Positions 11,488-38,281 are shown, numbered from the stretch's first letter. The stretch: DNA of 64,000 bases from a virus (IMGVR_UViG_3300028886_000029:299318-363317); one strand, 5' to 3'. Made by a program: numbers and translations. Notes: generated from the sequence alone by a model not told the origin.

Positions 11488-11511
11488 TTAATATTTTTAA
11501 TTTAATGCGAT

Positions 11512-15010: not shown

Positions 15011-15285
15011 ATACCACAGCCATACATAGTACTATCCATCATCTTGCTCTTATCATAGTTAAAACGTTTTATTTTTAAAAGAAATATTTTTAATGATACT
15101 TTGTTCATAAAAAAGATAAAAGTGTTTTATAGGGGCTAAAAATAAAAATCTTAAAAATATGCGGTGTTATATACATTGTGGCACTGAATATGCAAGTAAT
15201 GTATAAAGATAAAAAAAGTTGTGTATTTGGTGAAAGAAAAGTCCAATGTTATCGTATAAATAAGTGTAACAAAAAAAAATGTATT

Positions 15286-15510
15286 ATGAACAAGACTTAC
15301 ACAAACAGAGAGATTGAAACTATTCTTATCCGTAACGGATTTGTTATTGTTAGGAACAATGGTGGACATTGTATATATATGAGGGACAATGTAAGTATCA
15401 GTATTGTCATGGGTCATGATATGAATCCAATGATATGGAGGAGGTTATGTAAGGAAAACAATATTGATTGTAGGGTTTTAGACAAAAAATATTGGAGAAA
15501 GGTGAAATAA
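15286..15510 (+). CDS. HicA-like (dsRBD-fold mRNA interferase family) protein
   Basis: REIETILIRNGFVIVRNNGGHCIY...SIVMGHDM pattern; no HicB-like neighbour seen. Confidence 0.6.
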   Translation: MNKTYTNREIETILIRNGFVIVRNNGGHCIYMRDNVSISIVMGHDMNPMIWRRLCKENNIDCRVLDKKYWRKVK

Positions 15511-16244
15511 AACGGAAGTGGGGAAGTATAATATAGCAGATGTTTAACTTTTAAATTGTTTTGTTATGAAAGAGAGTTTGAGAAAAAAATTTGAGAAAGA
15601 GGTTGAGGGAGTTATCAACTATTTGGTCAATGCCGACAAGTTAAGGGGAGAGATTTTGTCAGATAGTGAGGATTTGGTTTTGTATGACAAATGGCAGAAT
15701 GTACTTGCCAAGGCTTATGACATTGTGGTGTCATTTGCTGATGAGCAAGGCATAGAGGTGGATTAGGAAAAAAATTTGTGGGGAAGTGAAGTTACGGCAC
15801 GGATATTGCTTGTAGTGTAGATGTATGTTTTTAATTTAATTTAGTTATGGCAATTAGCATTGAAAAAATCGAAGAAATGAGTGATATGGCCTTAGTAGGT
15901 ATAAGGAACATATCCGCACACGGGGTAGATACAATATGTAAAACAATAATAAATAGGTACAAGAAATGTGTTGACATGGATGAATATGTTGATACCGACA
16001 TTAACGCGGAGCATGGTGTTCTTGATTTCGTGATGATACTGATTGCTTTCAAGTTAAAATACAAGGGTGTTACCGATAGTTTAGGTTTGTTGTCATACCA
16101 TGGTGATATGCTCAACATAATGAACATGGTGTGTTTGATTATGATGTATGAGGAAAGAATGTAAAAAAGTTGTGTAAAAAGGTCAGTTTGGCATTGAATA
16201 TGCAAGTAAAGTAAGTGTATTGTTTAATTTAAAAAATAGTTATT

Positions 16245-16811
16245 ATGGAAAACAAGATTTACAACGCGTTGAACAACATCAAGGGTAACACTATTTTGGG
16301 TATCACTTATTTTAGTGACGTGCGTATGAACAAAGGTGGCAGGGCTTGCACCAATCCTTTGTGGGGACATAAAGTAGTAAGGGTTACTACGACTGAATTT
16401 CAGTTCGGTAACATCTATGAGAATAGTGTCAATAATAGGTCGGAGAAAGAAAGTGGCGTGAGGGTGTTTGAGACGGAAGCACCTAAAGGAAAGGTATGGG
16501 AGAAGTTCCCTTATTTTCTCAAAAACCTTGACGGAAGTAAGACTTATGTTAGGTTTTACAAGATGCGTAATGTTAAAGGCAGCAGTTTCATTCTTGTTGA
16601 TGGTCATTTGGTGACCGAAGATGAAATGATGGTTATCAAGGAGTATGAGCAGAAAAAGACTTATACAAGTCAAAAGCAGAGTGAAGCTGGATTGACGGAG
16701 AATCAAGTTGAGGTAAGGGACATCAATATAGACAACATATTGAGGATTGTTCTGAAAGGTGATGAGATTGTCAACACAATTGCGGAGGAAACAATAAAAG
16801 TTGGGGCATAG
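16245..16811 (+). CDS. Phage hypothetical protein
   Basis: 188-aa ORF between a promoter cassette and hairpin TTGGGG-CATAGA-CCCCAA. Confidence 0.8.
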   Translation: MENKIYNALNNIKGNTILGITYFSDVRMNKGGRACTNPLWGHKVVRVTTTEFQFGNIYENSVNNRSEKESGVRVFETEAPKGKVWEKFPYFLKNLDGSKTYVRFYKMRNVKGSSFILVDGHLVTEDEMMVIKEYEQKKTYTSQKQSEAGLTENQVEVRDINIDNILRIVLKGDEIVNTIAEETIKVGA

Positions 16812-18717
16812 ACCCCAATTTTTTTGTTTTGTGGTTGATTTGGCATAGAATGTGCAAGTAATGTAAGTGTATGTTTTTAATATAAATTGTTATGGAAAAA
16901 ATCGGATTAAGAAAATACAAGAGCGGTAATGGTTTCAAGCCTTGTGATAATTGGTATTATAGTTTAGAGGATGCTTTGGACTGTGTTGACCATGGTATCG
17001 CCAAACTTAAGGCGCAGTATGACATGGAAGGCAGGTTAAAAATCAATATCATTTTTGATGATGATGAGGGTTATTACTATGCTTGCAGGATTCCTAACAT
17101 GACCACAAGGGAGTTTAACGAAAGATATGGTAAGGATTATATAGATAATTTTAACTTTTATTTGTAGTTTGGTATAGTCCTTGCAAGTAAAGTAAGTATT
17201 AATTTTAAATTGTTTTTATTATGTACATTCTTTTTGATAGTGTCGAACAAAGGAAGTCTATAATCAATAGGCTTGAATCAATGGGATTTGAAAAGTCAGA
17301 ATTCAGTTGTTCTAATAATGAGGTTATTGGTGTCGGTACTTACTACAATCCACTATCTAATGAGAGAGTATATATATTTCTCAATAAGCCTATGGTGTTT
17401 ATTGATGATGAACGTTTTTCTTGGGTGATGAAAAGGACAAAGGCTGAAACCGAAGAAGAGTTTTTCAATGGATTGGAAAAAATGATGAATACAATGAACA
17501 AACAAGATGAATTGTTTGGTAGATATATGGCACATTAATTGCAAGTAATGTAAGTGTTGTTTAATTTTAAAATTGTTTTTATTATGGAGAAGTTTGTTCC
17601 GCAGAAAAAGAATGAGTTTGTTGGTGCCATCAAAAAGTATTTGATGGGTGGTTTTATTATTAGATATGATGGTATTGAAGAACATCCATTGGAAATACTG
17701 ACAAGGGATGGTGTTAAATTCCTTTCAACAATGGGAAACATTGGGAATGGTGTTGACAAAGGTTTTCTTCATAGTACCCTAAATTGTTCCCACAAAATTC
17801 TATTTCTTATAATAGATGAGTTGGAAAAAGAGTATTCAGTTAGAATAATTAGGTGTGGAAATAGTGGTTGTTGTCAATATGCAACTTATGGTGTATATCT
17901 TGATTAGTTTGGCACGGTAATTGCTATTAATGTAGGTGTTGTTTAATATTAATCAAAACACAAAAGAATATGAACAGAAGAAATGATTGGCAATATCTTC
18001 TTAAAATCGCCAATGAGGATTTGGAAAAGAAAGGTTATTCTTTACATCTTGTCGAAGATGAGGATGGATATTATAGTTGTGAGGTTTGGAAAGATGGGGA
18101 GTTTATTGACATCTATGCGGAAAACTATTGGGATGATGAACTTTCTGAACTAATTACAGATGCTTGGCATCACGTTTGTAAATATTTGGCACGTTAATTG
18201 TAATAAGAATAGATGTTGTTTAACTTTTAAAATTTAATTATCATGAACGTTTTTCAGTACGGAGCAATTTGCGAAAAGAATTGGGAGCAGAATCTTGCTA
18301 ACATGAGTGGATATGAAAGGAAATACACTTTTTATAGTGATTTTTCTATTGCGGAGTTTTGTGAGGTGTGGATGCGTGATAGGGGAGCTATTGTAGATAC
18401 TTTCAATAGGGTAATTGAAAGTTGGGGCAGTTCCATTGAAGCGATGAGTGAAATTGTTATGGTACTTAACCATAAGATATGGGCGTTTCATGATGGCGTT
18501 GATAGCAGTTATCTGAAATGTAATGAGACCAATAGGGATAAGATTGCAAGGTTATATGATAAGTTATATCGTAAGGCAGAAAATTTTGTCTATGAAAAAT
18601 TTGGTGAAGATAAGGACGCAATGAGGTATTATTATAGTGTAATTGATTAATTTGGCATATTTTGTGCATCTATTGTAAGCGTATAGTTTTAAGTTTAATT
18701 CAATAAAAAGTATTATT

Positions 18718-19197
18718 ATGAAGAAGTTTTTTAGATTTGTTTTTGTAACTTTGGTTACTATTGTATCAATGTATAATGTTTCTTTCGGACAAGTATGGAA
18801 AAGTACTTATCACGAAGCAGATGAATTGAAAGATGAAGATGCTTATTATTCTAATCTTTTTGTTGACAATAAAGGTGATGCTTTTGTTAGTTGGAGTAAT
18901 ACTAATGATGTAAAAGTTGTTAGCAATCGTGGTATTTTTGATTATGACCGTTATAACTTTGTTAAAGGAATTGTTGGTTTTTATGAAAATGGACAATTAA
19001 TGGAAAAAGTTTCTGTAAATTTTTATGTTCCTAAAGGCGATGCTAATAATGCATATACAAGTGATATAATAGATAAAACTATTGGTAAAAAGATTATTAC
19101 CCATCTTAAGACAAAAGGAAATGTTCGTATTATTCTCAGTAAGTATAGTGGTGCTGACTTTGACTTGATGATTCCTATGAATAAAGATATTAAGTAA
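18718..19197 (+). CDS. Secreted/periplasmic hypothetical protein
   Basis: Signal peptide MKKFFRFVFVTLVTIVSMYNVSFG|Q; Gln at +1 is typical of Bacteroidota. Confidence 0.7.
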   Translation: MKKFFRFVFVTLVTIVSMYNVSFGQVWKSTYHEADELKDEDAYYSNLFVDNKGDAFVSWSNTNDVKVVSNRGIFDYDRYNFVKGIVGFYENGQLMEKVSVNFYVPKGDANNAYTSDIIDKTIGKKIITHLKTKGNVRIILSKYSGADFDLMIPMNKDIK

Positions 19198-19944
19198 TTA
19201 AAAATATTTCCTATTTTTTCGTGCCATTCCGTTTGGTTTGGCACGATTTTAGTTATAATTGTAATTGTATAATTTTTGACATTTGATACACCTGAAGAAA
19301 ACCGAGTAGCCGTTTGTTTAATAAATAATAAGTAAAATATGGGAACAGATTTTCACGATTTGTTAAAAGAATTTAATATTAGTGATAACACTAAACTTGT
19401 ACCAAAGTACAAATATTATATTTTACATATCAGTATGTCTTTTGATAATAGTTATGTAAATGATAAAGTGGAATTTTATAATTTTGATAAGGCAGAAATG
19501 GCTGAACATTATGCAGAATTATTAAAAAAAGCATTTAGTGAAAAATATAAAGATAGACATCCTTGTTTTTCTTATAGCATTCATAGACAAACTTTTAGTT
19601 TAGTCACTGAATAAAGGTGGTTTGGCATAGACCTTGCTTGTAATGTAGATGTATAATTTTAAAACATTGTGTTATGGCAAACAAGAGAGTATCGTTAATG
19701 AAAGTAGCTGAATACATTTGGAAGCATTATGGGGGGTGTACTATTAGTAGGCTGTACACCAGAAACAACAAGATTGTTTCCAAATGTTATGTCGCTTGGT
19801 ACACAAGTCCAATTATTTTCACAAGGGACAAAAAGAAAAGTGAAAATTTAGGTTATGTTTACATTGAGGTGTAGTTTGGCATAGACCTTGCTTGTAATGT
19901 AAATGTAATATTTAAAAATTGTTTAACTTTAAAAAATAGTTATT

Positions 19945-20493
19945 ATGGAAAAGGAGAAGCAATTGATTAGTCTTGGTACGATGAATGTTAAAGGTGATGT
20001 TTATATTACTGACCCTTGTTATAACACGGATACTTGGTGTATGGGTTTGATTGAAATGAAAAAGGGTGAGTACAATTGTTTTGCTCATTTGTTTGATTGT
20101 GGTATATGGGGTGAAAGGATTGGGATACTTGAAATTATCCTTAATAATGAGATTGGAACAAGTTTGAGGACTGACAATCTTGGTTTGAATATTGGGGTTG
20201 ATAGTGGTCAAGCAGGTTTTTTCAATAAAGACTATTATGAGAATTATCATCATAGTCACTTTATTGACGAAAATTCAGAGGATGAGAAATGGTACAAAAG
20301 GGTGTGCGACATAACCTTAAGTGACGATAATTGTGGTGTTATTGATGATGAGGGTGTTGTATCTGAAAGTGGTTATGGTGATGGTTGTTATGATGTTTAT
20401 GGTTATTATAATGATAATGATGAATTGGTTGGTTTGAAGTTGGTATTTATATGGGAAGAAGATGAAGAAGAAAATGATGAGGATTATGAGTAA
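19945..20493 (+). CDS. DUF4241-like acidic protein
   Basis: ITDPCY, IGVDSGQAGFF and SGYGDGCYDVY motifs. Confidence 0.7.
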   Translation: MEKEKQLISLGTMNVKGDVYITDPCYNTDTWCMGLIEMKKGEYNCFAHLFDCGIWGERIGILEIILNNEIGTSLRTDNLGLNIGVDSGQAGFFNKDYYENYHHSHFIDENSEDEKWYKRVCDITLSDDNCGVIDDEGVVSESGYGDGCYDVYGYYNDNDELVGLKLVFIWEEDEEENDEDYE

Positions 20494-20910
20494 TTTGGCA
20501 TAGACCTTGCAAGTAATGTAAGTGTATATTTTGTTTAACTTTTAAATTTGTGTTAATTATGTATAACAAAGTCAAAGAAAATGTAAACAAATTGGTTTAT
20601 GATTGGGTATTGGCTTGTGGTGAGAACGGTCATATATATCCAAATGCTTATGTTGATTTGGAATTGTTTGGGGCAATTATGCACACTTTGATAATTGAGT
20701 TGTATTGCATGAACGGCAGGGATATTACAGTTATAAGCAGAGTTGAGGGGAGGGACGATGATAGGGATACATTTACTGATTTTTCACTTAGTGAAATGTG
20801 TCGGATGGCGGATGCTTGCGGTTATCCCGATGATTAGGTAAGTTTCAGAACTAATTTCAATTTGAATTGTTCATACTTTCTTTAAATCTTAAATACTTTC
20901 TTTAAATTTT

Positions 20911-20945
20911 AAATGACGGATGTTGTGAAATATCTGTCATTTTTT
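20911..20945 (+). terminator. Intrinsic terminator (identical copy at 23724)
   Basis: AAATGACGGATGTTGTGAAATATCTGTCATTT followed by a T tract. Confidence 0.8.
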
Positions 20946-23335: not shown

Positions 23336-23491
23336 ATGTAATATAAAGGGTGTGTGACATGGTAAAGATTAGAGATAAGCCTTAATAATATATAGATATT
23401 TGATATTATTTGTATGTAATATAAAGGGTGTGTGACATGGTAAAGATTAGAGATAAGCCTTAATAATATATAGATATTTGATATTATTTGT
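23336..23491. repeat. Perfect 78-bp tandem duplication
   Basis: ATGTAATATAAAGGGTGTGTGACATGG...GATATTATTTGT at 23336 and 23414. Confidence 0.95.
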
Positions 23492-23723
23492 ATTGTTTAA
23501 TTCATATAAAACGATAGGAAGCCCAAGCAATCGGCAGTTAATAGGCTAAACAATGGAATGGTTACAAAACTGCAAAGTTACTCATAGGTAACACAAAGGA
23601 CATTAAGGAAATTAAAAAACCTTATATAACCAATAGGTTCGGTCAGCCTTGGTGATAGTCTTGTGACTTGGAAATTTTTATTAAGGGTTTTATTTAGAAC
23701 TAGAACATATCAAAAATCTTTAT

Positions 23724-23760
23724 AAATGACGGATGTTGTGAAATATCTGTCATTTTTTTT
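23724..23760 (+). terminator. Intrinsic terminator (identical to 20911)
   Basis: Same 32-nt hairpin followed by a T tract. Confidence 0.8.
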
Positions 23761-24754
23761 TTATATATGGTACTCATTTGAGTACCTAATGGCACGATAG
23801 TTGTTATATAATAAATTGTGTAATTTTAAAAACAAATTGTTATGGAGAAGATAACCGATTTTAGTTACAATGATGTTGTTCTTTATGCAAAAGGTTGGTA
23901 TAAAAGGACTGACAATGTATTCAATGACATAAAGGAATGTCTTAAGGAAGATAATGTGTATAACACTTGGGATAATATGTCCCCAAGAGACATTTGTGGT
24001 CATATGCTAAGATGCCTTGATAAGATATATGGTTATCTTGATGATAATGACAAAAAGAATGGTAGATGGCTTTGCAGTCATGCCGCCTTTCTTGACACGA
24101 TAGAACACAAGATGAAATTTTATGGAAACACTTATGAGGAAGCGATTGTATATACAGTTCTTTCAATCCTGCAAGGATTGAGTATTGATGAGATTGAATT
24201 GAAAGCTCCGAAATATGGTAAGGGTCGTAGAAGAATGGGTGGAATGTTTAGTAATTATCCTATTTCTATGACATATAAAGAAATGAATAAAATTGCACAA
24301 TTAACATTTAATAAAAAATAGTTTGGCATAGAATGTGCAAGTAATGTAAGTGTATATTGTTTAACATTTAAAAATTGTTTATTATGAAAAATAGTATTGA
24401 ACTTTTACCCAAGGCGATTGAGTTTAACGATGGGAGATATTATGAACTAAGGATATATGTCACGGCATGGTTTAAACTTTGCTTAGCATATTGTAATCCT
24501 TTTCGTAGAAGCAGTGGGTGTTTGTCAGATGACGACAACATCTTAACGGTTGTTGTTGAGGGTGACAACAAGATTGAGAAGAAAATGACAAATGACTATA
24601 CAGTGATTTTCGATGCGTCTGATGTTGAGGATGCCGTTGATATTACATTAAGGAGAATAACCGCCTTACAAAATATTTGTGGTGATAATGTTAAGTTAAA
24701 ATATTAGTTTGGTCTTATCTTTGTAAATATAGAAATTGTTAAAATAGAAGTGTT

Positions 24755-25153
24755 ATGATTTCAGAAGATTATGTCACCTACGAGACCGCAAAACTCTTAA
24801 AGGAGAAAGGGTTTGATGAAGCTACTATTGGTTACTATAATACCCTATGTGAAATACCCGAAAGGATAAAATTTTTCGATTCTCCAATTTTTATATACGG
24901 CAGTGATGGACTTATCGGATGTATTCAGGCCCCAACCCTTCAGATGACGATGAAGTGGTTGAGGGAAGTACACGGTATTGATATTGAAGTGCGAACTCAT
25001 TATTTGAATTATCTAAAACCAAACGATATTCGTTATTATAGCGGAAAAATCTTAAAAGGTAGTGAGGACGTAATACACACTATATACTCAAAAGATACCT
25101 ATGAGCAAGTCGCTGAAGCAGGTATTCGTTACTGTCTTGAAAATTTAATTTAG
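24755..25153 (+). CDS. EDYVSFE-family phage protein
   Basis: MISEDYVTYETAKLLKEKGF...APTLQM..KWLRE...YCLENLI. Confidence 0.85.
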   Translation: MISEDYVTYETAKLLKEKGFDEATIGYYNTLCEIPERIKFFDSPIFIYGSDGLIGCIQAPTLQMTMKWLREVHGIDIEVRTHYLNYLKPNDIRYYSGKILKGSEDVIHTIYSKDTYEQVAEAGIRYCLENLI

Positions 25154-26949
25154 ATAATGACAAGGTTTGGCATTATTCTTGCAAATAATGTAAGTGTATT
25201 GTTTAATTTAAAAATTGTTTGTTATGCAAAAGAAAAATGTTAACATTAATGTGAGTGAGAGAGTTGTTAGTATTGCCAATATGATTAATGATAATAACAA
25301 TCCTGCGGTAAACCAAATTGTCATTGAATTGGAAAATCGTGGAAAACTTTTTGTAAGTTATAGCTCACTTATTTGTTATAAAAAAGGTGATATTGTTTAT
25401 TTATCATCAAAATGGAATTTTAGTCAAACCACACGAAAGCATCTTTATATGTTTATGAGGGACGAACTTGGTTGGCAGAATATTAAAAAGAAAAAAGATG
25501 TTGAACAACTGATTAAAGAAAGTAATGTTCTTATTTTGGTAAATCAAATTGTTTTTTAAAGAATATCCAAATAGTTTGGCATAGAATGTGCAAGTAATGT
25601 GAATGTATTAAAATTAATTAATTATGACTGGAAAAGATGTAATAAAATATATTCAAGAAAATAATCTTGAGGACGCAAAAGTAACGGTTACTGCTACAAT
25701 GTATTATCATGGTGACCATGATTGTCGTACAACTGATGAGGTGTCAATATCACAAGAAAGCGAAAGAATGAAAGTTGAGTGTGAGGGAAAAAGGCCCAAA
25801 TACATAACTGTTCCTACGATTGATTTCTATGTTGATTCTTATCTTTATTAAATTATGACAAGAGAAGAAGCAAAAAACATCATTTGGAACAAATTTCTTG
25901 AAAAGGCATTTTGTTCAAAATTATATGCCTAAGAATCCCATTGTTTTGGGTGATGGTAGTATTGTCACTATGATATATAGTACAATAAGAGGTATGTATG
26001 ATAACTATGTTGTTTCTGATTATGATGGTGTTTTAAACGATGAGCTTGTGTCTTTGTTTGTCGTATTTAAGGAAACCAACGCGAACGGATTTTCAAAATT
26101 TAGACAGTTAAAAAACATGAAAACTGAAGATATAATCACTATTGCCGAAAGGATGATGGCATAGTCTTTGCAAGTAATGTAGATGTATTGTTTAAAAATT
26201 GTTTAACTTTAAAAATTATTTTGTTATGGAAATGAATATGTTTTGGAATGAAATGCAAAAGCTTCATGCTAAGATTAAGAGCTACATTTGTGAGTTTTTC
26301 AGTGAAAACAATTTAGAGAGTATTAATATGTTGCCTTATGTGAGTAATGGCTACATTGATTCGTTTACATTTTTTGATGTTGATAACGATGGTTGTTATG
26401 GTGTCGCTTTAAATGTTGATAGCATTGAATATAACAAAGACAAAAACGAAATTAAAGCGGTATTGTCTGATTATGAGGGTGTACATGAAGTAACACGTTC
26501 TTTTATAGATTTCAATACCCAAGAACTGCTTTATTTGGCTGATATGTTGTCAATGATTAAGACCGCACACGAAACTAAAAACACACCCTATCTTGCTATT
26601 GGTGAAGAATTTGATTTTGATGAACTCCTTTTTCAATGATTATGAGTAGTTTGGTATAGACCTTGCAAGTAATGTGAATGTATTATTTAACTTTTAATTT
26701 GTTTTAGTTATGGCAACCATACTCAACGATTGGGAAAAGCTCCTTCAATATGCAAATGAAGATTTGGAGAAACACGGATATTTGCTTCTTATTAGTGAAG
26801 ATGAGGGTTGTTACTCATGTATAATATGGCACAATGGTAAGCAAATAGCCGTTTATGCTGAAAACTATTTTGAGGACGAACTTACTGATTTGATTACTGA
26901 TGCTTGGCATCATGTTATAGGTACTTATATAGTATAAGTATATAAAGAT

Positions 26950-27123
26950 ATGAAAACAATAACAAAGGAACAGTGGTATAAGATGCTTGCCGTTAATTGT
27001 AATCGAAGCAAGCATAGGTTTAGGACAAACAACTATGGCATAACATTTTGTGTTATTTGTGGCTTGTTATCCAATAAGGGGGCAGATGTTCTAAATGAGG
27101 AAGAAAAGATTAAAGTGGTTTAG
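26950..27123 (+). CDS. Small Cys/His protein (not in ORF track)
   Basis: MKTITKEQWYKMLAVNCNRSKHRFRTNNYGITFCVICGLL...; 57 aa. Confidence 0.6.
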   Translation: MKTITKEQWYKMLAVNCNRSKHRFRTNNYGITFCVICGLLSNKGADVLNEEEKIKVV

Positions 27124-30100
27124 TCATGTACAAGTTTTTTTATACTCTAACATTTGATGATGGCACGATAATTGACGATAGTTGTTATTGTGAGAGTGAG
27201 AAAGAACTGTTAAATATGTTGGCATATCTATATCCAACGGCATTTGTTGAAGTTTTTTAGGATTTCTTTCACTATGGCACGGAATGTGCAAGTAATGTAA
27301 GTGTAATTTTAAAAACTAATTGTTATGACAAAGATTTTACTTAACGATGAGACTGATTGGTACACCGCATTTGATACAAGGACATTTGCACTGAACACCT
27401 CAACATTTTTGTTTGAGAACACTTCATGGACAGAGGGATTGTTCGCTTTCATTTATGATGATAAGGACACAATGTTTGATGAGAGTGATGTTTCAATAGT
27501 TGTTAGGGAAAAGAAACCGATGTTTCTTCTTTATAACACAAGAAACGAATTAATTGGTTATGTCAATTAGTTTGGCACGGAATGTGTAAGTAATGTAGAT
27601 GTATTGTTTAACTTAAAAGATGTTTGTTATGAAAGTCAAATTTTTTGAGGATTTCACAAAGAATGACCTTTGGGCATTGAGAAATGAGATTAGTTTAGGT
27701 AGTCTTTTTGTTTATGACTATGAGAATAGTTTTAACCTTGACCCTCATACAGTGTCCGATTTCTTCGATAGTTACGTTGACTATCTTGATAACGAATGTG
27801 GCGGCATTGACAATGATAGCATTGACAATCTTTTTGATTGGTTCTGCTGCTATGACGATTTGTCTTTCATGAGGTATGACCTTGAAGAATTGGTTGACGA
27901 ACTGAATGGGGTGACGGAGGAACAACATTGGATTGAGGATGGCAGGTACTTTGTTTGCTACGATACCGACAACATGGACAATATTGATGAGATTAGTGAA
28001 AAAGAACTAATCAATAAGATAAATAGAAAACTTGTTGACTATTAATATTATTGAATATATATTAGATAATAACAAAATATCTAATATATATTCAATAATT
28101 ATGGGTTTAACAAAAGAACAATGGGTAATGAAAAGGATTAAAGAGCTTACCGACATTGTTAATAAAAAAGGCAAGGAGATTAAAAAGGAAATCAGATATT
28201 ATTGTGGCAAAGAACCGCTGATTATCAAAGATATTTGTTGTGATGGAATCGCTTTGGTAAAAGATGAACTTGTTTTCGCTGACAACAGTAAGCACGGATT
28301 TACCATAAGGAAAAAAGCAAACGAAGTGGAAAGGAAATATTTGGAAGAAGTTTTGTCTGATTTGAAATAGTTTGGCATAGTCCTTGCAAGTATTATAAGT
28401 GTTTGGTTTTTATGTTTAATTGTTTTATTTTTAACTCGTTTTTTGGTATGGAAGACAAACTTTACAATTTTATTCAAGACATTATTGACAATCTGTCAGA
28501 CGATGATTTGAGAAATCTGCATCAAGATTATTGTGAATGTAATAATTATACCGATGACATGATTTTTTCAATGTGTGATTTCAATGACTTGAATAACAAC
28601 AAAACACCTCTTGAAATTGCTGAATTGGTGTGTGGTAATGATTTCAATCCTAATCATGATTGGTTCAAGTACACTATCTATGGTGTTGAGTCTTCTGACA
28701 ATGTTTCGGATTTGATTTACATCAGTGACTTGGTTAATTGGGTTGAGATTGACCCCTATAGGATTAGGAAATATCTTGATTATGATGAGGAGGAGGAACT
28801 TGACGAACTTCTTGGTCTGAATGACGATGAGGATTGGGAAGAAGATGAGGATGAAGACGACAATGATGAATAATAAGGTACTCATTTGAGTACTTTTATC
28901 AGCAAAATTCACAATTTATAAATCGCAAATTTTATATGGAAAAGATTATGATTGATAGCCTTAATAGGACTTATGTTGAGACATTGGTTATGCCTTTCAT
29001 TAGTGACGAAAACGATAGAGCCAAAATGGTCAGTCATATTATAGAGCATGTTGGCGCAGACGCTAACTTGGATGAGTATAACAAGTACATGGGTGAACTT
29101 ATTTTCAAGGGTGTAGATGCAGAGTATTACATTTAGTTTCTGCGGACAGAAATACACGCATGAGTTTTTCTTCGGTACCAAACCGATAAATTGGTTTGGA
29201 ATAAAGGACACGAATGGCAAATGGCACGATTGTTGTTACAATATGGAATTGGATTGTATATTCATATTTGGACAAGATAGTGATTATTTAGAAGAAACAA
29301 GTGTATGTATTGCGTAAAAAGATTTTACATTAAAAACGACATTGACCATCAGTATCAAGAGTTTTATAATAACATTGTCAGTATGGTTATTGGTTTGTTT
29401 ACTATAAAAGAAAATTGTTATAAGATTAAAGTAGTTAAAATTAAAAGTGTTTAGTTATGGGCAGTTATCAAGGTGATATGTTCGTCAAAAATTTGTTTTG
29501 GGATTTGTTTGAGGAAACAAGTAAACCTCATATTCTCAAATACGATTTTTATAACCTCAACGGTGACGACAAATATGAGATTGCGAAAAAGACATTTGAT
29601 GATTGTGTGGAGATAATCAATGAGCAATATCCGCATTTTAGTGAAGACAATCCGATTTGGCAGGAGGAATATAGGGACAACATTGTCTTTGAATTTACCC
29701 AAATGTTGTAAAAATTTTTGATTTTGGCTGACTTTCGGAAAGAACGGCATACTCTTTGTTACATTAGTTAATGTGAATTATAAAAACGAAAAATCATGAA
29801 AGAGTTTAACAAATGGTTTAAGATTAGTTTTTCCTTTAGGGGTACGGACTTTGAACACACAATTCACCTTAATCAAATTGAGGTTGACGAATGTACTTGG
29901 TTCTATTACTTTGACATCAATATCAAAGAGGATACTTATAGAGTTGAGGTGTTCGGCACTTATGATGATAACGGTAATGTGAGGACAACGGGTGATTGTG
30001 TTGTTGACGGTAGAGAGGTTGTGCCCGTATTCGGAATTAACATTCTTGACGACTTTGATGATGTTATTGACATTATAGATGATATTGACATCATAGATGC

Positions 30101-30191
30101 GGATTAATAAATATTTTTTGTTTTTTTAAAATATTTATATAAATTTGCTAAACATTTTAAAAATAATTTTTATTAAAAAAAGAACCGAATT

Positions 30192-30356
30192 ATGAAAAAG
30201 ATAGTATCAAGTATTGTTATTATTATGATGGCTATTGTCATGGTTTCATGTGGAAACAGAACCAAGAAGGTTGATACCGTTAATGAGGTTGCTGATACCA
30301 CAGAGGTTGTGGCTGATAGCACCACAGTGGCGGTTGACAGTACAGTAGTTGAGTAA
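30192..30356 (+). CDS. Small lipoprotein (not in ORF track)
   Basis: MKKIVSSIVIIMMAIVMVS-C-GNRTKK...ADTTEVVADSTTVAVDSTVVE; lipobox plus D(S/T)T/V repeats. Confidence 0.75.
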   Translation: MKKIVSSIVIIMMAIVMVSCGNRTKKVDTVNEVADTTEVVADSTTVAVDSTVVE

Positions 30357-32941
30357 TAACATTTTTTAAGTTAAACAATTTTTTTTTTGTCCATGTCAAT
30401 AGTTTGGCATGGACTTTGTTTTATCTTGGTATGTAATTTAAAATATTTGTGTTATGGATATTGTTAAGACTATTGGTGCGAAAACTTATGGCGGTATGAC
30501 TTCCGTTGATTTCGGTGGTGTTTATCTCAACTCCATTTCATTGCAGTTCCACAACGGTAAAGAATGGATATATGATTATACCATATACGATAGGGACTGT
30601 AATTTTCCTATGGTAATAAGGAAAGAATTCAAATGTTGTGTGGTAAATAATGTTGAAGAACTTCGTGCCGTTGGCAAGAAGATATTGGCAGGTGACACTT
30701 CTTTTCTCAATAGGGACATTGTTGTGAACACGAAAAAAGTTGACAAAGCAAGAATGGTTGAGATAGTCAGAACCAACAAAAACGTGATTATGGCGGAAGA
30801 AAGCGCATATTTTGACAATACTTGGTATGTTGTTGAGGTAAAATAAATAGTTTGGCATGGAATGTGCAAGTAATGTAAGTGTTTTTATTTGTTTAACTTT
30901 TAATTTGTTTTGATTATGTACTACGACAAGGAAAGATTTGACAATGCTTTCAAGAAATTTCTTCATGAGTTTATTTGGTCAACTGAAACTCTTGATGGAT
31001 TCAATGAGTTTGACATAAAGGAATTTAAAAAGAAAATGACCAATGATGAGGACTTCAAACAACGTTTCCGTGAGATGTTCAATGGTATGATTGATGATTA
31101 TGTCAGTGACATTATTGAGAACAAGAGAGAGGTAAGGCGTTTTCATGTTACCAATATTGTATGGGATATGACTGATTCCCAAGGTAATTCCGAAGATGAG
31201 GGTATTTCACTTCCCAATGAAATTGACTTGTATTGCTTTGATGAGGACGAAATCGCTGACACACTTTCAGACGATTATGGCTTTTGTGTGAAAAGTTTTG
31301 TGGTAAACTATTAAAACTAAAATATCATGGCAAGAAATAAGATGCAATTAATTAACAAGATTAAAGGACTTGTTAGGAAAAACACGGATAATAATACCTA
31401 TTACTTCGCAACCAATACGATTGCGGATATGTGGAACAATGAGAAGAAGATACCAACGGTACTTCATTATCTTAAAGTAAAAAACGATGTGCTTTACATT
31501 TGTGTGTCAGATGTGTGGCTTGACCACTCCATTGAGAAATTCAGTGACTTTGACATTGATGAGATTGAGTATGTGTACAATTTGGTTTTAAACAATAAGT
31601 AATATGTTGTCAGATAATTTCAGAAGCAAGGCGACCGACCTTAATGCGGATATTGAGATTGCGATTGCCAAAATCATAAACAAGAAAAACATTAAAGACC
31701 CTTCAATCAAAATTGGTGTTGATGATAACAATAACAGATGTGTCTTGTTCAATGGTTGTCCAATAAGAAAACTACATATCGAAGACAATCTTACAATTCT
31801 TGAGAATTTGGAAAACCAAAACGATGTTTTGGCATAGACCTTGCAAGTAATGTAGATGTATATTTTGTTTAACTAAAAAAATCTGTTTGTTATGAAAAAG
31901 GAAATTATCAACACAACTTATCTTGATTCAAGGTGGTATCTTGACTATAAGTATGAGGACTATGTTAGGGATTGTGAGGACTTGGGCATTGAACCTTGTG
32001 AGGAAAATTCAAATGGTTATTGGGATTACATTTCCGAAGAAACAAATATCAACTATGAGGACTTTTTCGATAACCTTGAATATTCCCCTATCAATAACAC
32101 ACCTTGTATGGTTGTTGGCTCCGTTGGAAGATGGAACGGTGATTTTGAGATTGTTCCTGTCCTTTTCGATAACATTTCAGATGCTATCCACAAATGCCTT
32201 AATGGTGCGGACGATTATGAGATTGTTTTGAAAGACGGTTATATCACCGTTTGTGGCTATCATCATGACGGTTGCAACTCCTTTGAGATTCATATTCTTT
32301 CCAAAAAAGGTATGAAAGAAATTGATAGACCTAAATACAATTATGAGGACTATAATGTAAAACCTTGGTGGTTTAAGAAAATTTATGGTTATCTTTTCTA
32401 ATAATGGCATGGTCTTTGCCATTATTGTCAATGTTATTTTGTTTTAATTTAAAGTTTATGGTTATGACAGAAAAATTTACTCTTTCAAACGGAAAAGAGG
32501 TCAAAGTTAGTGTTCATAGGAACGGCACAAGCAGTGTTATGCTTAATGGTAAACACTATAAGTACAAGGTTATTGTGGAAGTTAACAACATAACCAAATA
32601 CTTTAATTTCCACGACAGTATCGCTAATTATACAAAAGGTGCCTATCCTATTGTCGGTGAGTGTTTGGGATGCGTGCTGATGGATGCTTTCGATTATTAT
32701 GAGAATTCCAATCCCCAAAACTTTGCCAATGAGTTTGGTTACGAAATAGGTACAAGGGAATTTGTAAGAGCCTATAATGGTTGCGAAAAAGCATATTATA
32801 AGATGTTGTCAATGTTTTCATTTGACGAAATGTATGAACTATACAATTTTCTTGCAGAAAAAGGTTATATTTAATGATAATGGCATGGTCTTTGCCATTA
32901 TTGTTAATGTATATTTTTGTTTGGTTTAAAATCATTTTATC

Positions 32942-33565
32942 ATGAAAAAGTTTAATCTTGACATTTGTTTCTTTCCTGGTTTTTACGGAACCATTTATGA
33001 TTGTGTTGATAACGAAACAGCCGCCATTGAAATGGAAATGGAATATCAATCCACTTCTGAAAACCATGGACTTTCATTTGACGATTTTGTCTTTGATTGG
33101 GATGCCTATAAAAAAGCGGTGGCCGAAAACTTTGTGGATGCCTATGCCTTGTACGCAAAGGAAATCCCTTTCATTAAAGCAATTACGTTTGATGAGATTG
33201 AAAGTCCACGGTACTATAACTTTACGACTGACAAAATCTATTGTTGGTTTGAGTTCGCTGACTCATGGAAAGACGACATGAGAAAATTCATGGATGAGAA
33301 CTACGATTGGCTGAAAAATATCATCCATGAGGAACACACCTCAAGAAGCGGCTTCATATCCTTTATGGATAATGACATTGATGATTGGTATAATCGTCTC
33401 TTTGTTGATGAGGAGAGCATCTACATTGAGGACATGATTAAATATATGATTATGTCAAAAAACAATGTGGAACAAATGTTGGATGATATTAATATGACAG
33501 TATATGACAACGTGATTGAGACTGAATTCGTCTCCATCAAAGAAAAAAGCGAAAGTAATGTGTAA
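32942..33565 (+). CDS. Acidic phage hypothetical protein
   Basis: FPGFYGT, SPRYYNFTTD and SRSGFISF; strongly D/E-rich. Confidence 0.8.
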   Translation: MKKFNLDICFFPGFYGTIYDCVDNETAAIEMEMEYQSTSENHGLSFDDFVFDWDAYKKAVAENFVDAYALYAKEIPFIKAITFDEIESPRYYNFTTDKIYCWFEFADSWKDDMRKFMDENYDWLKNIIHEEHTSRSGFISFMDNDIDDWYNRLFVDEESIYIEDMIKYMIMSKNNVEQMLDDINMTVYDNVIETEFVSIKEKSESNV

Positions 33566-34433
33566 TATATTATAAGTTACAGCCATTAAAACAATTTAAC
33601 ATGTAATATATTATATATAGTACTCATTTGAGTACCTTACGGCATGGTTATTGTATTATAGTGTAAGACTTAAAATTTTTATTATGGATAAGGAAACCGC
33701 ACAAAAAGTTTGTGATGAACTGAACACCTCAATTTGGAGGGAAACCATCAACAAGGCCATCTATAACAAGTTGGGCGTAAAAGTTGAAATGGCCGCTAAG
33801 TTGTCTCACGGAAGAACCCAAGACTATGTTGTTCTTGAGGATACTTTCGGTAAGGATGTATCTGATAAAATGATGGGTAATAAACTTCTTAGACACCTTT
33901 TCGAAAAAGCCTATATTGAAATTGAAGTGTGGAACTTTGACGACTCTTATGGATTTCCTGTCAATGTATACTATAACCATCATGATGGTGGAAGCAATGG
34001 ACATCAACTACTGCTTTTCTATATCATGAAGCACAATAGAAAAATCATCTATCGTTGAAATCTTTTTTGTCTTTTCCTATTATTTTAGTATATTTGTAAA
34101 AAAAACACGTAATATGATTAAGTTTAATGATTTCGCAAAAGTAATAGACAAAATCTGCACACTTGACGACACAGCCGCTAAACTTGCGGATATTGGTATT
34201 GATATCTATAACACCCCTTTCTATGAGTGTGCCACCTCTCTTGCTGAGGATTTCTTTAACTGCCATTTTAACGCTGATGGCGTTGACCTTATCTATTGGT
34301 GGCTTTATGAGGATGTTGAGAAACTTATCTATGATGAGCACCATAATATCGTTGATAATCTCACAAATATAGAAGACCTTTTTGATTATCTTACTGACCC
34401 TGACAATAATTACTTGCTTTAAAACTCTATATT

Positions 34434-34676
34434 ATGTTTAAAAACAGAACAATCGAAGACAATGGATGCCTTACGGCTATTATCTATGCCCTCATAACAA
34501 TCGTGGTTGTTATCGCATTGTCAGTCCTCTTCTCCCTACCAATTAAATGGCTATGGAACTGGCTTATGCCAACCATCTTTAACCTCCCAACCATTACTTG
34601 GCTTCAGGCTCTTGGACTCTCTGTCTTGTCAGGCTTCCTCATTAGAAGTGTTAATACCTCTAATAACAATAAATAG
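34434..34676 (+). CDS. Small membrane protein
   Basis: Hydrophobic segments; WLWNWLMP..F.LP.IT..QA.GL. Confidence 0.75.
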   Translation: MFKNRTIEDNGCLTAIIYALITIVVVIALSVLFSLPIKWLWNWLMPTIFNLPTITWLQALGLSVLSGFLIRSVNTSNNNK

Positions 34677-35166
34677 TACTCATTTGAGTACTATTTGAAT
34701 ATTTATCTTTGATTTAATCAAAGATAAATATTTTAATAAAACAAAAAATCAGAAAAAACGACTTTAATTTTTGACAAAAAACTTTAAAAAATGATATTTG
34801 CTATTTGTTTTTTGTGTGTTATAGGAATAACGAGAGTAATAATGGAAGGATATGATGACTATTAAAGACCTTAGGGATATATTAATTCATTTTACTGATA
34901 GGAAATATGATGATTATGAGGTAATATTATGGGATTATAATCATCAGCAGGATTGTGATTGGGGTGGTGGTTATTCATTAAGCCATCCAGATAAAAGACT
35001 TGTCTTTCCGATAACAGTGAATGATGTTAATGAGGAAACCATAACTGACAGGATTAAAAAGGTCATGGATGATTTAAAAAACAAATAGTACTCATTTGAG
35101 TACTATTTGAAAAAAAAAAGTTTGATTTGGCATGATTCTTGTAAGTATATAAAATGTAAAAAAATT

Positions 35167-35205
35167 GGTCCCTTAGCTCAGTTGGTTAGAGAAACAGAAC
35201 CACCA
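35167..35205 (+). pseudogene. tRNA remnant (5' acceptor + D-arm joined directly to a 3' ACCA end)
   Basis: GGTCCCTTAGCTCAGTTGGTTAGAG...AGAACCACCA; anticodon and T arms are missing. Confidence 0.65.
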
Positions 35206-35206
35206 T

Positions 35207-35283
35207 AGGGAAGTATCGGCTCACTCTTATAAAGTGTCGAAACCGTAGCTGGTTGCACGTGGGTTCAAATCCCACCTTCCCTA
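35207..35283 (+). tRNA. Atypical D-arm-less tRNA-like RNA, anticodon UAU (Ile)
   Basis: Acceptor AGGGAAG/CTTCCCT-A; T-arm GTGGG-TTCAAAT-CCCAC; loop CTTATAA in stem CACT/AGTG; extra hairpin AACC-GTAGCT-GGTT. Confidence 0.7.
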
Positions 35284-35290
35284 CTCAAAA

Positions 35291-35641
35291 ATGTTATTTT
35301 GTTTTAAAAAAATAGTTTTATATAATTGTAAAAAAAAATATAAAAACATTATTATGGATTGTTATAAACTTATTACCACAACAAATGATTTTAACTATGT
35401 TGATGTATTTTCAACTTATATGGCCGCAGTCAATAGACTTAAGTCAAATGTCGAAGGACAAAAAGTCCTTGAAAATGTCACCTCAACATATGAATTCGGT
35501 GAATATAGTAAACATAAACCACTTCTTATCGTCCCATACTGGCATGATAACCATATCCTCTATGGTATTAGAACAACCTCTTTCTTTGATAATAAAGAAT
35601 ATTCTATGTATAGATTTATCGTTAAAGACCAAATAATTTAA
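35291..35641 (+). CDS. Hypothetical protein (likely start at MDCYKL)
   Basis: ORF between RNA genes. Confidence 0.6.
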   Translation: MLFCFKKIVLYNCKKKYKNIIMDCYKLITTTNDFNYVDVFSTYMAAVNRLKSNVEGQKVLENVTSTYEFGEYSKHKPLLIVPYWHDNHILYGIRTTSFFDNKEYSMYRFIVKDQII

Positions 35642-35686
35642 CACTATTTTTTTGTTTTTAATATATTTATTTATATATTTGCTGTG

Positions 35687-35855
35687 ATGTTAATTGGCAA
35701 ATATATCATCAGAATAAAAGTTGTTGGTTTTTCTCTTCTCGTTTTTAGTCCAACACCACTTACTGTTAGCCACTTGTTAAGTGTGAAAAAACGAGACCGT
35801 AGTCAAGACGGTGATTCTGATGAAACAAAAATTTGGATGGCTACCGTTATAACAT
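35687..35855 (+). ncRNA. Candidate pseudoknotted structured ncRNA
   Basis: At least 6 complementary segment pairs, two of them 10 bp, including crossing pairs; strand inferred from neighbours. Confidence 0.6.
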
Positions 35856-35909
35856 TCTTTTTGTTCCTCTCATGTAGGATTTTTTGAATGTTTTATTTTA
35901 AAATAATTA

Positions 35910-35972
35910 GGAAAACATACAGCAACCTTCTTTTTATTAAAAAATGTGGTTTTTTTATTTATTGGTTTTCCG
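35910..35972 (+). ncRNA. Stem + ACAGCAA RNA motif in the tRNA-Leu leader
   Basis: GGAAAAC-ATACAGCAA-(loop)-GTTTTCC-G. Confidence 0.65.
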
Positions 35973-35994
35973 TTTATTTTTTCTTTGATAACAC

Positions 35995-36310
35995 GGCGGT
36001 GTGATGAAAGGGTAGACATGAGGGAAAACCGATTGACGGTCAGTCCCCTCCAAGTGGAAACACTTGGATAAACATCGGATGAATTCGGCTGAGGGAATAA
36101 ACCTGAGGGCGAACCAAGCCAAGAATACATTCTTGGAAGGCGTACAGACTAATGGAGAAGTTCAGTCTTCTTAATAACCATATTTAGCGTCCGATACCTA
36201 AAACATTATTTGTCATGGTAAAGAGATAGTCGAGTTATAAACCATTTATAACGCTTAAAATCCCTTGGGCAGCAGTGCCCGTGTGAGTTCGAATCTCACC
36301 ACCGCTACCA
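35995..36310 (+). tRNA. trnL: tRNA-Leu(UAA) interrupted by a group I intron (exons 35995-36025 and 36254-36310)
   Basis: Joined exons give acceptor GGCGGTG/CACCGCT-A-CCA, anticodon arm AGGGA-CTTAAAA-TCCCT, long variable arm GGGCA-GCAG-TGCCC and T-arm GTGAG-TTCGAAT-CTCAC. Confidence 0.92.
36026..36253 (+). ncRNA. Group I intron, 228 nt, no ORF
   Basis: P2 CCAAGTG-GAAA-CACTTGG; P3 ATCGGAT/GTCCGAT; P7 GACTA/TAGTC with AAAGAGATAGTC; P9 GTTATAA/TTATAAC; terminal G. Confidence 0.88.
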
Positions 36311-36316
36311 TCAAAA

Positions 36317-36354
36317 TATCTCATATCGGTTATAGATATGGGATATTTTTTTTT
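36317..36354 (+). terminator. Terminator after tRNA-Leu
   Basis: TATCTCATATC-GGTTATA-GATATGGGATA followed by a T tract. Confidence 0.7.
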
Positions 36355-37202
36355 ATATCAAAAGGTCGAAATTTTTTCCCATTTCTGAAAATTTCCCATA
36401 GGGATTTTTTTAAAACTATTGTCAAAAGGTCGAAATTCCACTGTTTTCGGCATGATTCTTGTAATAATGTAATTGACATATTTTACCGATTGATATACCA
36501 TCAATCCAAGCAGAGAGCATTTTTTAAAATTAACCCTGAAGTATAGTTTCCATTGTACCTATAACTCTGTACATTATATCCATAAAAAAATTAATACAAA
36601 ACATTAATTTCTTTATCTATTTTTGTTATAACGGTATGATTTTTGTATATTTGTATATACAAATAAATAAACTATTTAATATATAACATTATGCTTGACT
36701 TCTTTAAAAATCTCTTTAAGAAAAAAGACACCACTATTGTACCTTCAGTGTTGTATACTACAGTATATAATGACTCCATGCCTAAAAACACGGAGAAAAA
36801 CATCAAACCATATACATTTAAATTGAATGCGGTTGAGTCATATAGGTATGATGAGTTTAAGAAAAAACATCTTAAAGACGGACTACATAGTATCGTATTT
36901 ACCCCTAACGGTATCGGCATAACCAAAAAATGTATATGCGAAAAAAAGAAACTAATAGAAGATATCACTGATTATAACACATTCTAATATGCTTACAATT
37001 AATTTCTGCCACTATAGCAACCTCTACTATATGACATGGTTCTCAGATAATAATATAACTGACATACCAAAACCAATTGTCAATATCTTTAATACTCTCC
37101 TCACTGATGTCTCCTTCGGCTATCATGTCTTCTTTAACCAAGAAAATTATATCAAAATACGTGATATCTTCACAAAAAAATTTAATAACGAAATCAAAAT
37201 AA

Positions 37203-37580
37203 ATGTCTATGAATAATAATAAAAATAATAACAATGGTACTCATTTGAGTACTAACCATAACTCACCTGATAATGTCATTAAACCTATTAACCTTAATGA
37301 CTATACCACTGTCGTGTCATCAAATAATAACACTCTTAAAAATAATGATGATGACTATGAACACGTAGACCACCCTACACACTATAATAACTACTCACAG
37401 GAAGTTATTGATATGATGGAAAAAATTTGGGGTACACAGAACCTCATTACCTTCTGCGAAATGAACGCCTTTAAATATAGAATGAGAATGGGTACTAAAC
37501 CTGATAACCCTATACAACAAGACCTTGATAAAGAAAAATGGTATCTTAATAAAGCTAAACAACTTAGGGAAAAAAACTAA
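37203..37580 (+). CDS. DUF3310-like phage protein
   Basis: VDHPTHY...EVIDMM...FCEMNAFKYRMRMGTK...QDLDKEKWYL. Confidence 0.85.
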   Translation: MSMNNNKNNNNGTHLSTNHNSPDNVIKPINLNDYTTVVSSNNNTLKNNDDDYEHVDHPTHYNNYSQEVIDMMEKIWGTQNLITFCEMNAFKYRMRMGTKPDNPIQQDLDKEKWYLNKAKQLREKN

Positions 37581-37684
37581 AATAACATGCCTACAAAACA
37601 ACAATAGTACTCATTTGAGTACTATTTTTTATATGTGCCCACTATTTATATTAGTATACAATAACAGTTTTTAATATCAATACT

Positions 37685-38047
37685 ATGAATAAAAACCTAC
37701 AAAACGCTGTATTTAAATTCAAAACATTCCTACTCTATGTAATCACTTTCTGCCTTGGCTACGCTGTGGTTACATTAAACCTCCATTTCTTCCCATCAGT
37801 GATTATCTCTATGCTTGCACTTTACGTCTTCTTCCAAGCACTTGACAATACCGATAAACTAAATAATATAGGACAATATAACCCCAATAAAAACCCTAAA
37901 AATAATAACCACCATAACCATTATGACGATGATGATGAATACCATCATAATAAATATCAACAAGAACCAACTGCTGAAGAAGAAGAGGAAGAAGAAATGA
38001 ACGAACAACCTACAGTTGATGACGATGATGTCTTTATGCAAGATTAA
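37685..38047 (+). CDS. Membrane protein with acidic low-complexity tail
   Basis: Two TM segments followed by an H/D/E-rich tail. Confidence 0.7.
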   Translation: MNKNLQNAVFKFKTFLLYVITFCLGYAVVTLNLHFFPSVIISMLALYVFFQALDNTDKLNNIGQYNPNKNPKNNNHHNHYDDDDEYHHNKYQQEPTAEEEEEEEMNEQPTVDDDDVFMQD

Positions 38048-38281
38048 CCTATAATATCGAAAACATAATTTACCATAAAAAAAATCATGACATCTAATGC
38101 CATGATTTTTTTGTATCTATGAGGTATATATTTATATCCCCCACCATTACATGTTTTTTAACTTATCTTTTTGATTAACAATGTTTTGAACTATAATAAA
38201 ATATTTTGGAACATAAAAAAATTGTTGGCAAAAAATTGTACTTAAAAACTACTTAATTGACTATGACCCCATATGAGTAAC

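Follow-up and report, generated by a model that had tools for sequence, protein, structure and literature searches.

The window analysed here, a stretch of 64,000 nucleotides (nt), runs from base 299318 to base 363317 of one virus record (IMGVR_UViG_3300028886_000029), 363,317 bases long and rated 100% complete, and a hypervariable accessory region within it carries an array of promoter motifs of the sigma54 (RpoN) type, repeated ahead of its small genes. The phage, hereafter G000, encodes a T4-like Gp23 capsid protein (genome 255219-257123), a T4 portal, sheath, gp19 tail tube, gp32 and a family B polymerase; two sigma70-family factors, P0002 and P0003, are both encoded outside the window, and no RNA polymerase subunit was found among 334 frames scanned with Pfam. 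Genes were called with a codon-bias script, so starts and gene counts are approximate. Sequencing runs from 11 studies contain the array, most of them bovine gut metagenomes, and G000 is probably a 363 kb T4-like rumen jumbo phage of Bacteroidales. We infer this host from the Bacteroidota housekeeping promoter of its relatives (consensus in PMC7366714; papers are cited by PubMed Central accession and for the passages available to us), from the near-absence of Shine-Dalgarno sequences, from a BACON domain present in G000, and from the scores of its IF-1 and 287-residue sigma factor, which are best on three Bacteroidales among 14 genomes, by modest margins; searches with DnaJ, TnpB, RmlD and methylase did not identify the host. 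G000 differs from the Jug phages, which are defined by RpoC, P-type ATPase and TerD genes (PMC12880540), in that no such Pfam family occurs among the 334 frames, a scan that left out the 731- and 2035-residue frames and genes below 90 residues.

The sigma54-type sites of the window (window coordinates) are:

15179-36987, plus strand: hypervariable accessory region, 53 called genes, mostly 60-200 residues, several very acidic, almost all without a family
Array motif starts, first part, plus strand: 15179, 15795, 16189, 16841, 17170, 17528, 17910, 18187, 18653, 19239, 19623, 19877, 20496
Array motif starts, middle part, plus strand: 20964, 21532, 22176, 22515, 22834, 23075, 23790, 24324, 25168, 25577, 26157, 26652, 27275
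Array motif starts, last part, plus strand: 27573, 28373, 29222, 29745, 30405, 30853, 31830, 32405, 32881, 33640, 35128, 36448, 36632
20496-20525, plus strand: typical copy, TGGCATAGACCTTGCA (-26 to -11) and tail AGTAATGTAAGTGT (-10 to +4), with a predicted +1 at 20522 (from sigma54 geometry) and the preceding stop codon 2 nt before the motif
8365-8380, plus strand: single sigma54-type site heading a small-gene operon (8418-13033)
42015-42030, minus strand: sigma54-type site 53 nt ahead of a 429-residue gene (40688-41977)
45607-45622, minus strand: sigma54-type site ahead of 45365-45580
56752-56767, minus strand: sigma54-type site heading the minus-strand small-gene run below 56.7 kb
58597-58612, minus strand: sigma54-type site ahead of a DUF2828/DUF7788 RNA-binding gene (56889-58529)
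62170-62185, minus strand: sigma54-type site ahead of 61773-62138

The first-pass annotation of this DNA had placed about 45 sigma54-type promoters here, and their positions, orientation and approximate number hold: 39 array copies, the site at 8365 and the five minus-strand sites (42030, 45622, 56767, 58612, 62185) make 45. The consensus it gave, YGGCAY-N5-TTGCW, describes a real motif but is too strict as written, with 14 matches in the window (13 plus, one minus; 0.18 expected), and an example quoted with it, TGGCACGGAATGTGCA, does not fit because position -15 is often G and -12 often T. Relaxed to YGGYAY-N6-WGYH, the pattern matches 42 times on the plus strand of 15.1-36.7 kb and never on the minus strand; 200 shuffles gave a mean of 1.27 and a maximum of 4. 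We kept 39, dropping 18165, 19974 and 32523 as lying inside coding sequence. Of the 53 genes called between 15179 and 36700, these curated sites lead 38: 37 small protein genes with predicted leaders of 18-90 nt, and one that lies 200 nt from its site, behind a tRNA-like gene which that site leads directly. Copies are spaced every 250-900 nt and share exact runs of up to 47 nt, and in many cassettes the stop codon of the upstream gene lies 2 nt before the motif.

The matrix of these sites reads TGGCAYRGWMYKTGYW followed by AGTAATGTARRTGT, the latter being a conserved tail at -10 to +4, and places GG at -25/-24 and G(C/T) at -13/-12. The GG and the G at -13 are invariant, position -12 is C at a frequency of 0.69 and T at 0.30 (37 sites), and the predicted +1 is a purine in most array copies. 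Upstream of genes across G000 the 7-nt spacer occurs 54 times, as against 10, 1, 4 and 4 times for spacers of 5, 6, 8 and 9, and 48 genes are led by sigma54 sites while 4 have a site on the opposite strand. About 15 further sites, which like the tail went unremarked in the first-pass annotation, lie elsewhere in G000, including one at the head of a tRNA cluster and one, at genome 95703, heading the co-oriented gene run that ends in P0002. The 5' ends of tRNAs fall 3, 14 and 19 nt after a predicted +1 (3 nt for tRNA-Trp, 14 nt for the apparent end of the tRNA-like gene behind the 35128 site), which is compatible with sigma54 start geometry. GG at -25/-24, G(C/T) at -13/-12, fixed spacing and co-orientation with genes are together what characterizes sigma54 promoters; array genes have almost no other promoter class, none of the 48 sigma54-led genes has a Shine-Dalgarno sequence, and we regard promoter function of the array sites as highly likely.

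The same core stands before host chaperone genes. With a query lacking the tail, each of 30 Bacteroidales groES genes out of 30 has a best site that starts with TGGCA, 63-102 nt upstream, and sites of at least 9 bits precede 17 of 30 groES and 28 of 30 grpE genes (reverse strand, 4 and 2). The phage pattern with its tail matches at least 120 loci when scanned on bacterial genomes; among the matches listed, those checked include sites ahead of dnaK (three Bacteroidales, one Akkermansia), groES, PTS mannose IIA, hcp and rpoN. Five genomes in which a single activator was detected have matches ahead of dnaK, groES, dnaJ, clpC, htpG, degP, lolA and the primary sigma gene, and an enrichment of sigma54 sites at chaperone genes in Bacteroidota has been described (PMC12316311). 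A matrix built from 45 host sites returns 39 matches in the array, 38 of them on the plus strand. The RpoN-type identity proposed at first reading is supported by the match to host groES, grpE and dnaK promoters, with which the phage copies share the core TGGCA-N7-TG(C/T)W, the spacing and the leader distance. They differ from the Bacteroidales chaperone promoters (groES, grpE, dnaK, dnaJ, clpC, htpG, degP) in lacking an upstream TGMCA-N3-TGKCA element, in a stricter C/T at -12, in the copied -10 to +4 tail, and in their packing. The Bacteroides thetaiotaomicron PM2 motif, a near-palindromic -10/-30 element (PMC7366714), is not equated with the array motif, and in the accessible parts of PMC3162934 and PMC12596196 no passage on Bacteroidota RpoN was found.

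Both RpoN and an enhancer-binding protein are probably available in the host: all 61 Bacteroidales sampled have RpoN, and 30 of the 31 Bacteroidaceae sampled have an enhancer-binding activator. In each of the 11 activators scanned the AAA+ domain begins at residue 14-31 and is accompanied by a Fis helix-turn-helix, with no sensor domain, and in single-activator genomes the gene adjoins lptE. Such a protein may be constitutively active. It resembles PspF (PMC9239133) and the engineered DctD250 and delta-A2-DmpR (PMC3844500, PMC11997794), likewise without an N-terminal sensor, and differs from them in being host-encoded, next to lptE, with its helix-turn-helix kept; activators without a regulatory domain are stated to act without specific binding sites (PMC11997794, PMC3844500), and PMC11225630, citing a transposon study, describes RpoN as essential in Porphyromonas gingivalis. 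It is very probable that host sigma54 reads the array sites, and likely that the host activator suffices for them. Separately, a sigma54 consensus site lies 81 nt ahead of the primary sigma factor gene in host genome G105 (L435:565-1419); if general, such a site could help explain RpoN essentiality.

Since sigma54 is silent without an activator, phage early genes would be expected on the housekeeping holoenzyme, and this is the arrangement seen in relatives of G000. Relatives were picked by capsid (59-76% identity); several are near-complete genomes, and G013 is a fragment. Sigma54 sites lead 48 of 432 genes in G000, 17 of 386 in G001 and 17 of 219 in G013, and 4 of 496, 1 of 403, 6 of 451 and 3 of 385 in G007, G008, G010 and G011, the sigmaA-type relatives analysed gene by gene. 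The full host-type sigmaA promoter, TTTG-N-TAnnTTTGC, leads 2, 0 and 0 genes in the three sigma54 users and 52, 53, 35 and 49 in those four relatives, where it fronts clusters of mostly small genes; two further sigmaA-type relatives, assessed by site counts, hold 90 (G009) and 17 (G012) such sites. Only 9 of 53 array genes have homologs in the tested relatives, versus 118 of 145 core-region genes, yet among 13 homolog pairs of sigma54-led G000 genes in sigmaA-type relatives eight are sigmaA-led (background 13-23%) and none is sigma54-led. Two genes of the window have housekeeping-led homologs:

16245-16811, plus strand: 188-residue gene, sigma54-led in G000, its G007 and G010 homologs housekeeping-led
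56889-58529, minus strand: the DUF2828/DUF7788 gene listed above, its homologs in G001, G008 and G011 having housekeeping-type promoters

Likewise, two sigma54 sites stand immediately before the P0002 orthologue in G001; in G007 and G010 that place is taken by a sigmaA promoter.

A 10-gene tree unites G000, G001 and G013 (split support 1.0), and a rooted capsid tree nests the three among sigmaA users (support 0.998). Because the relatives have the same layout on sigmaA and the sigma54 users form one nested clade, the promoter class appears to have been swapped once; by this comparison, sigma54 use is derived and arose once in this sample. The earlier proposal that the array serves an early programme is probable, as the sites stand where relatives have housekeeping early promoters. 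TAYCTTTGC occurs 0 times in G000 against 6-7 expected; we do not claim active avoidance, since G001 and G013 are at or above chance. Pattern scans of viral contigs gave one chance match with the exact tail and, with looser patterns, 10 and 5 single-match loci, one of which led to G001.

Three upstream motif classes partition G000: sigma54 sites precede small accessory genes, TTTG-N-TAT(A/T)TTTG precedes DNA polymerase, primase, gp32, SSB and the operon with the second sigma factor (P0003), and ACTATTTAT precedes tail tube, sheath and gp25. The simplest order would be host sigma54, then P0002, then P0003. This arrangement bears on whether P0002 or P0003 itself recognises the array motif, its sigma54 likeness being convergence. 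There are two sigma70 factors to hand, RNA polymerase-less jumbo phages are thought to use their own sigma factors at phage-specific promoters (PMC13282480), and TAATGT occurs within the tail. Nevertheless, G007, G008, G010 and G011 encode both factors without having the array motif; in G000 and G001 the P0002 gene itself comes after the motif; there are two other motif classes that the two factors could use; the rigid GG-N10-GY spacing equals that of the host element; and sigma70-type -35/-10 hexamer pairs are at chance level (116 versus 112 expected). We consider recognition by a phage sigma factor improbable.

A phage-encoded sigma54 or AAA+ activator, which the first-pass annotation had entertained, is not supported. 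Pfam searches found neither RpoN domain (PF04552, PF04963) in G000, and its PF00158 matches are an 848-residue ClpB and RecD2 frames, not enhancer-binding activators; in 18 relatives, the hits over cut-off (28-43 bits) lie in frames of 699-865 residues. Profiles of host activators (14 proteins) and of host RpoN (15 proteins), together with a GAFTGA search, gave nothing convincing in the six frames of G000 and the fetched relatives. A 387-residue AAA protein (P0001) was rejected as an activator, being a plain AAA protein without GAFTGA, and a 124-residue late-promoter protein was rejected as a clade-specific candidate because it also occurs in G010. In principle, an activator of the phage's own is unnecessary, as the host family conserves one without a sensor domain.

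It is nonetheless possible, though rather unlikely, that host sigma54 reads the promoters and a phage factor without a recognisable AAA+ domain is needed, delivered with the virion or made from variant sigmaA-type promoters, and either bypassing activation or tethering the host activator. Phage sites lack the element of host chaperone promoters, which leaves room for such a co-factor, and profile searches picked out six proteins confined to the three sigma54 users (DUF932 nearly so), at these genome coordinates:

78742: 74 residues
92577: 99 residues, cysteine-rich, two genes before P0002
242357: clade-restricted protein
297825: clade-restricted protein
358763: clade-restricted protein
88938: DUF932

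None of the six resembles an activator, neither G000 nor the fetched sequence of relatives holds anything similar to an activator or RpoN, and clade-specific genes are to be expected through shared ancestry; atlas searches with the 74- and 99-residue proteins returned no hit at 0.9 and were uninformative. Furthermore, the 74-residue, 99-residue and DUF932 genes lie downstream of sigma54 sites in G000, so their products cannot be the first activator. The tail, scored by a TGT test, is found in 32 of 39 array sites and 8 of 45 host sites, which speaks for such a factor; it is explained by copying, however, since copies share long exact runs and it occurs at no more than 7 of the 21 solitary sites.

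Taken together, we favour with some reserve a sigma54 promoter set, one per small gene and likely early, served by host RpoN polymerase and the sensor-less host activator without the chaperone-type enhancer. The mechanism we propose begins from an array core identical to the element before host groES, grpE and dnaK, and from a promoter class that, by comparison with sigmaA-using relatives of the same layout, was exchanged once in the nested sigma54 clade. At entry, host sigma54 polymerase would transcribe the tRNA cluster and the P0002-terminated operon along with the array; P0002 would in turn direct the middle genes, P0003 among them, through variant TAT(A/T)TTTG sites, and late genes would follow from ACTATTTAT. 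The activator would be the conserved host protein encoded beside lptE, acting from solution or from a putative enhancer. In two strains, the near-identical promoter copies are the break points for cassette gain, loss and movement.

Several points weigh against this account. TGMCA-N3-TGKCA occurs in 29 of 60 host groES/grpE upstream regions (L319-L378; 0.4 in shuffled sequence), where the TGMCA half-sites mostly come in pairs 3 nt apart, either palindromic or directly repeated, and in only 1 of 39, 0 of 21 and 0 of 12 phage sites; were it the obligatory enhancer of the activator, the host activator alone would not suffice. Of 23 host sites in genomes with a single activator (draft genomes), 17 also lack it, so that working without an enhancer may be usual, or the element may be that of a heat-shock regulator; we treat it as a candidate enhancer or heat-shock operator. 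Moreover, G000 retains 40 variant TAT(A/T)TTTG sites that might be read by host sigmaA, so that an early phage co-factor could come first. The reverse test is incomplete, with sigma54-led homologs of sigmaA-led genes at 4 of 24 in G000, 2 of 24 in G001 and 0 of 11 in G013, and weaker because in the sigma54 clade many such genes are preceded by a variant sigmaA-like promoter or by no promoter. The three sigma54 users form one clade and count as one event; the host matrix was seeded with the phage-trained matrix and is not fully independent; the host assignment is indirect, with the modest score margins given above; and the reading of this element by Bacteroidales RpoN draws on motif identity and statements in PMC12316311. 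Starts of array transcripts are predicted from geometry only, and the RNA-derived data are contigs of one sample crossing several motif copies, possibly DNA. These contigs, from two RNA runs, match the array in short pieces at 99-100% identity; we do not take them as support, since they give neither starts nor strand and may include DNA.

The first-pass annotation had also suggested that the array titrates host sigma54. As a decoy, it would trap host sigma54 polymerase in closed complexes and blunt the chaperone response, for which 39 sites in 21 kb, nearer consensus at -12 than host groES sites and missing the host upstream element, might seem suited, all the more as RpoN is reported essential in one Bacteroidales species (PMC11225630). 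All 42 relaxed matches, however, lie on the coding strand at leader distance, pointing into genes that have almost no other promoter class and whose homologs in relatives carry ordinary promoters. A mainly decoy role is therefore very unlikely, although titration could be a side effect of the array.

Strain variation indicates that cassettes move at the promoter copies. The evidence consists of five fully resolved joints from two studies, drawn from 15 of 31 strain joints, and involves the following elements:

17910-18213, plus strand: mobile cassette, promoter and 75-residue gene (17970-18197), with a 65% identical paralog at 26710-26937
24707-26650, plus strand: five-gene block absent in run X4, its joint running from a stop codon to 2 nt before the 26652 promoter
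27289-27588, plus strand: one-gene cassette absent in run X4, its joint within two promoter copies (+14, +15)

In run X3, the stretch 17923-18213 is gone from its place and found behind the 20496 promoter (joints 17923>18213, 20503>17947 and 18198>20531). Nine of ten joint ends lie within -2 to +37 of a motif start, zones that make up 9% of the stretch, and 0-10 letters fit both sides of a joint, which argues against assembly collapse of long repeats. Joints at copies, together with the long exact identities between them, could suggest that the repeats are recombination cassettes or relics of gene duplication only, with no promoter role. We find this hardly credible: solitary copies with unrelated flanks keep just the -24/-12 core, G001 and G013, with a mean protein identity of about 46%, retain that core, and the motif replaces a known promoter class gene by gene.

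In this behaviour the array recalls the PeSL promoter/stem-loop cassettes in hyperplastic regions of the T4-type phages RB49, phi1, PST and nt-1 (PMC2839356, PMC4122927). Common to both are a T4-like phage, a repeated promoter per small orphan gene in a variable region, an upstream stop codon abutting the cassette, and genes deleted or displaced between copies. G000 differs in having a -24/-12 promoter instead of a sigma70 -35/-10 or MotA-type one, in showing a hairpin beside only about 8 of 39 copies, and in the lack of Shine-Dalgarno sequences noted above. Terminator-like sites number 18 in 20 kb, against 6.6 expected; a stem-loop terminator per cassette is not what the array shows. Without the sigma70 promoter and the per-cassette stem-loop we do not class the array as PeSL, although it works like one by analogy, with gene gain, loss and movement at promoter copies. 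The hairpins and related repeats are:

20911-20942, plus strand: terminator-like hairpin just ahead of the 20964 site, with a second copy at 23724-23755 before 23790
16796-16823: another hairpin, before the 16841 site
23770-37622, plus strand: near-palindrome GTACTCATTTGAGTAC in seven copies (23770, 28878, 33620, 34676, 35088, 37237, 37607)

The GTACTCATTTGAGTAC copies have a single orientation and occur nowhere else in G000; two stand exactly 20 nt before a sigma54 site, and some score terminator-like.

Among known phage systems the nearest likeness is P015 of Pseudomonas phage YuA (PMC10914365), also a sigma54-type phage promoter and one whose start has been mapped; YuA is stated to depend on both sigma70 and sigma54. 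There, it is one promoter in a small phage; here, about 60 sites probably make up the early promoters of a jumbo phage whose sister lineages use sigmaA. In freely readable texts, without supplements, we found no phage sigma54 early array and one sigma54-like phage promoter, that of YuA.

The comparison amounts to a natural experiment, in which the same early-gene layout, with partly the same genes, runs on sigmaA in six relatives and on sigma54 in a derived clade. It offers comparative evidence that sigma54 can serve as a ready-to-use sigma factor in Bacteroidales, which fits the sensor-less activator and the reported essentiality. Both RpoN essentiality in gut Bacteroidales and the enhancer need of its activator become directly testable, the 39 natural promoter variants being a ready reporter library, and PeSL-type gene shuffling is extended to another promoter class. 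More tentatively, the whole early programme may have moved to sigma54 on enhancer-less promoters, with the host chaperone circuit, or else a small non-ATPase phage factor, as the switch. If the host sigma54/chaperone circuit were the infection switch, the phage would be free to silence sigmaA transcription.

Two further features belong to the array genes:

15286-15510, plus strand: first array gene, HicA-family toxin-like, 74 residues (Pfam HicA_toxin E 1e-6, above cut-off; phrog_353)
35168-35283, plus strand: tRNA-like gene (Rfam tRNA at 35207-35283, 34.7 bits; 5' arm read from the sequence)

Several array proteins contain 24-32% acidic residues; acidic small proteins and toxin-like genes are expected among host-takeover and anti-defence genes. 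The HicA-like gene is followed by a 66-residue acidic frame without a family (window 15286-15766), possibly an antitoxin. The tRNA-like gene is one of several interrupted tRNAs, the others being a tRNA-Leu(TAA) with a 228-nt intron (window 35995-36310), a tRNA-Lys with a 41-nt insert (59883-59997) and three cluster tRNAs with introns of 554-722 nt (L004:7240-17582). At least 10 paralogous proteins of 120-160 residues resemble phrog_12005, in the window at 24755-25153, 43041, 51621, 52001, 60548 and 60952 and outside it at genome 1391, 2329, 104791 and 105177; in a near-identical strain fragment (L103) the set is arranged differently, with short shared ends.

Elsewhere in the window, an IMPDH/GMP reductase gene is split around Hint/intein pieces with a 318-residue frame between (3947-6709), and GC skew reverses at 36000-38400, where 38047-38411 is non-coding between convergent gene blocks. 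In the relative G001, a strong GGAGG Shine-Dalgarno sequence precedes 11 of 17 sigma54-led genes versus 42 of 369 others (G001:188000-209000; L100, L101), a pattern unusual for a Bacteroidota phage and seen in neither G000 nor G013. Finally, several BspA-type leucine-rich repeat genes have repeated DNA in common across the genome (L004-L019), and many proteins carry 'ES'-type N-terminal repeats, which we take to be suggestive of processed head proteins.

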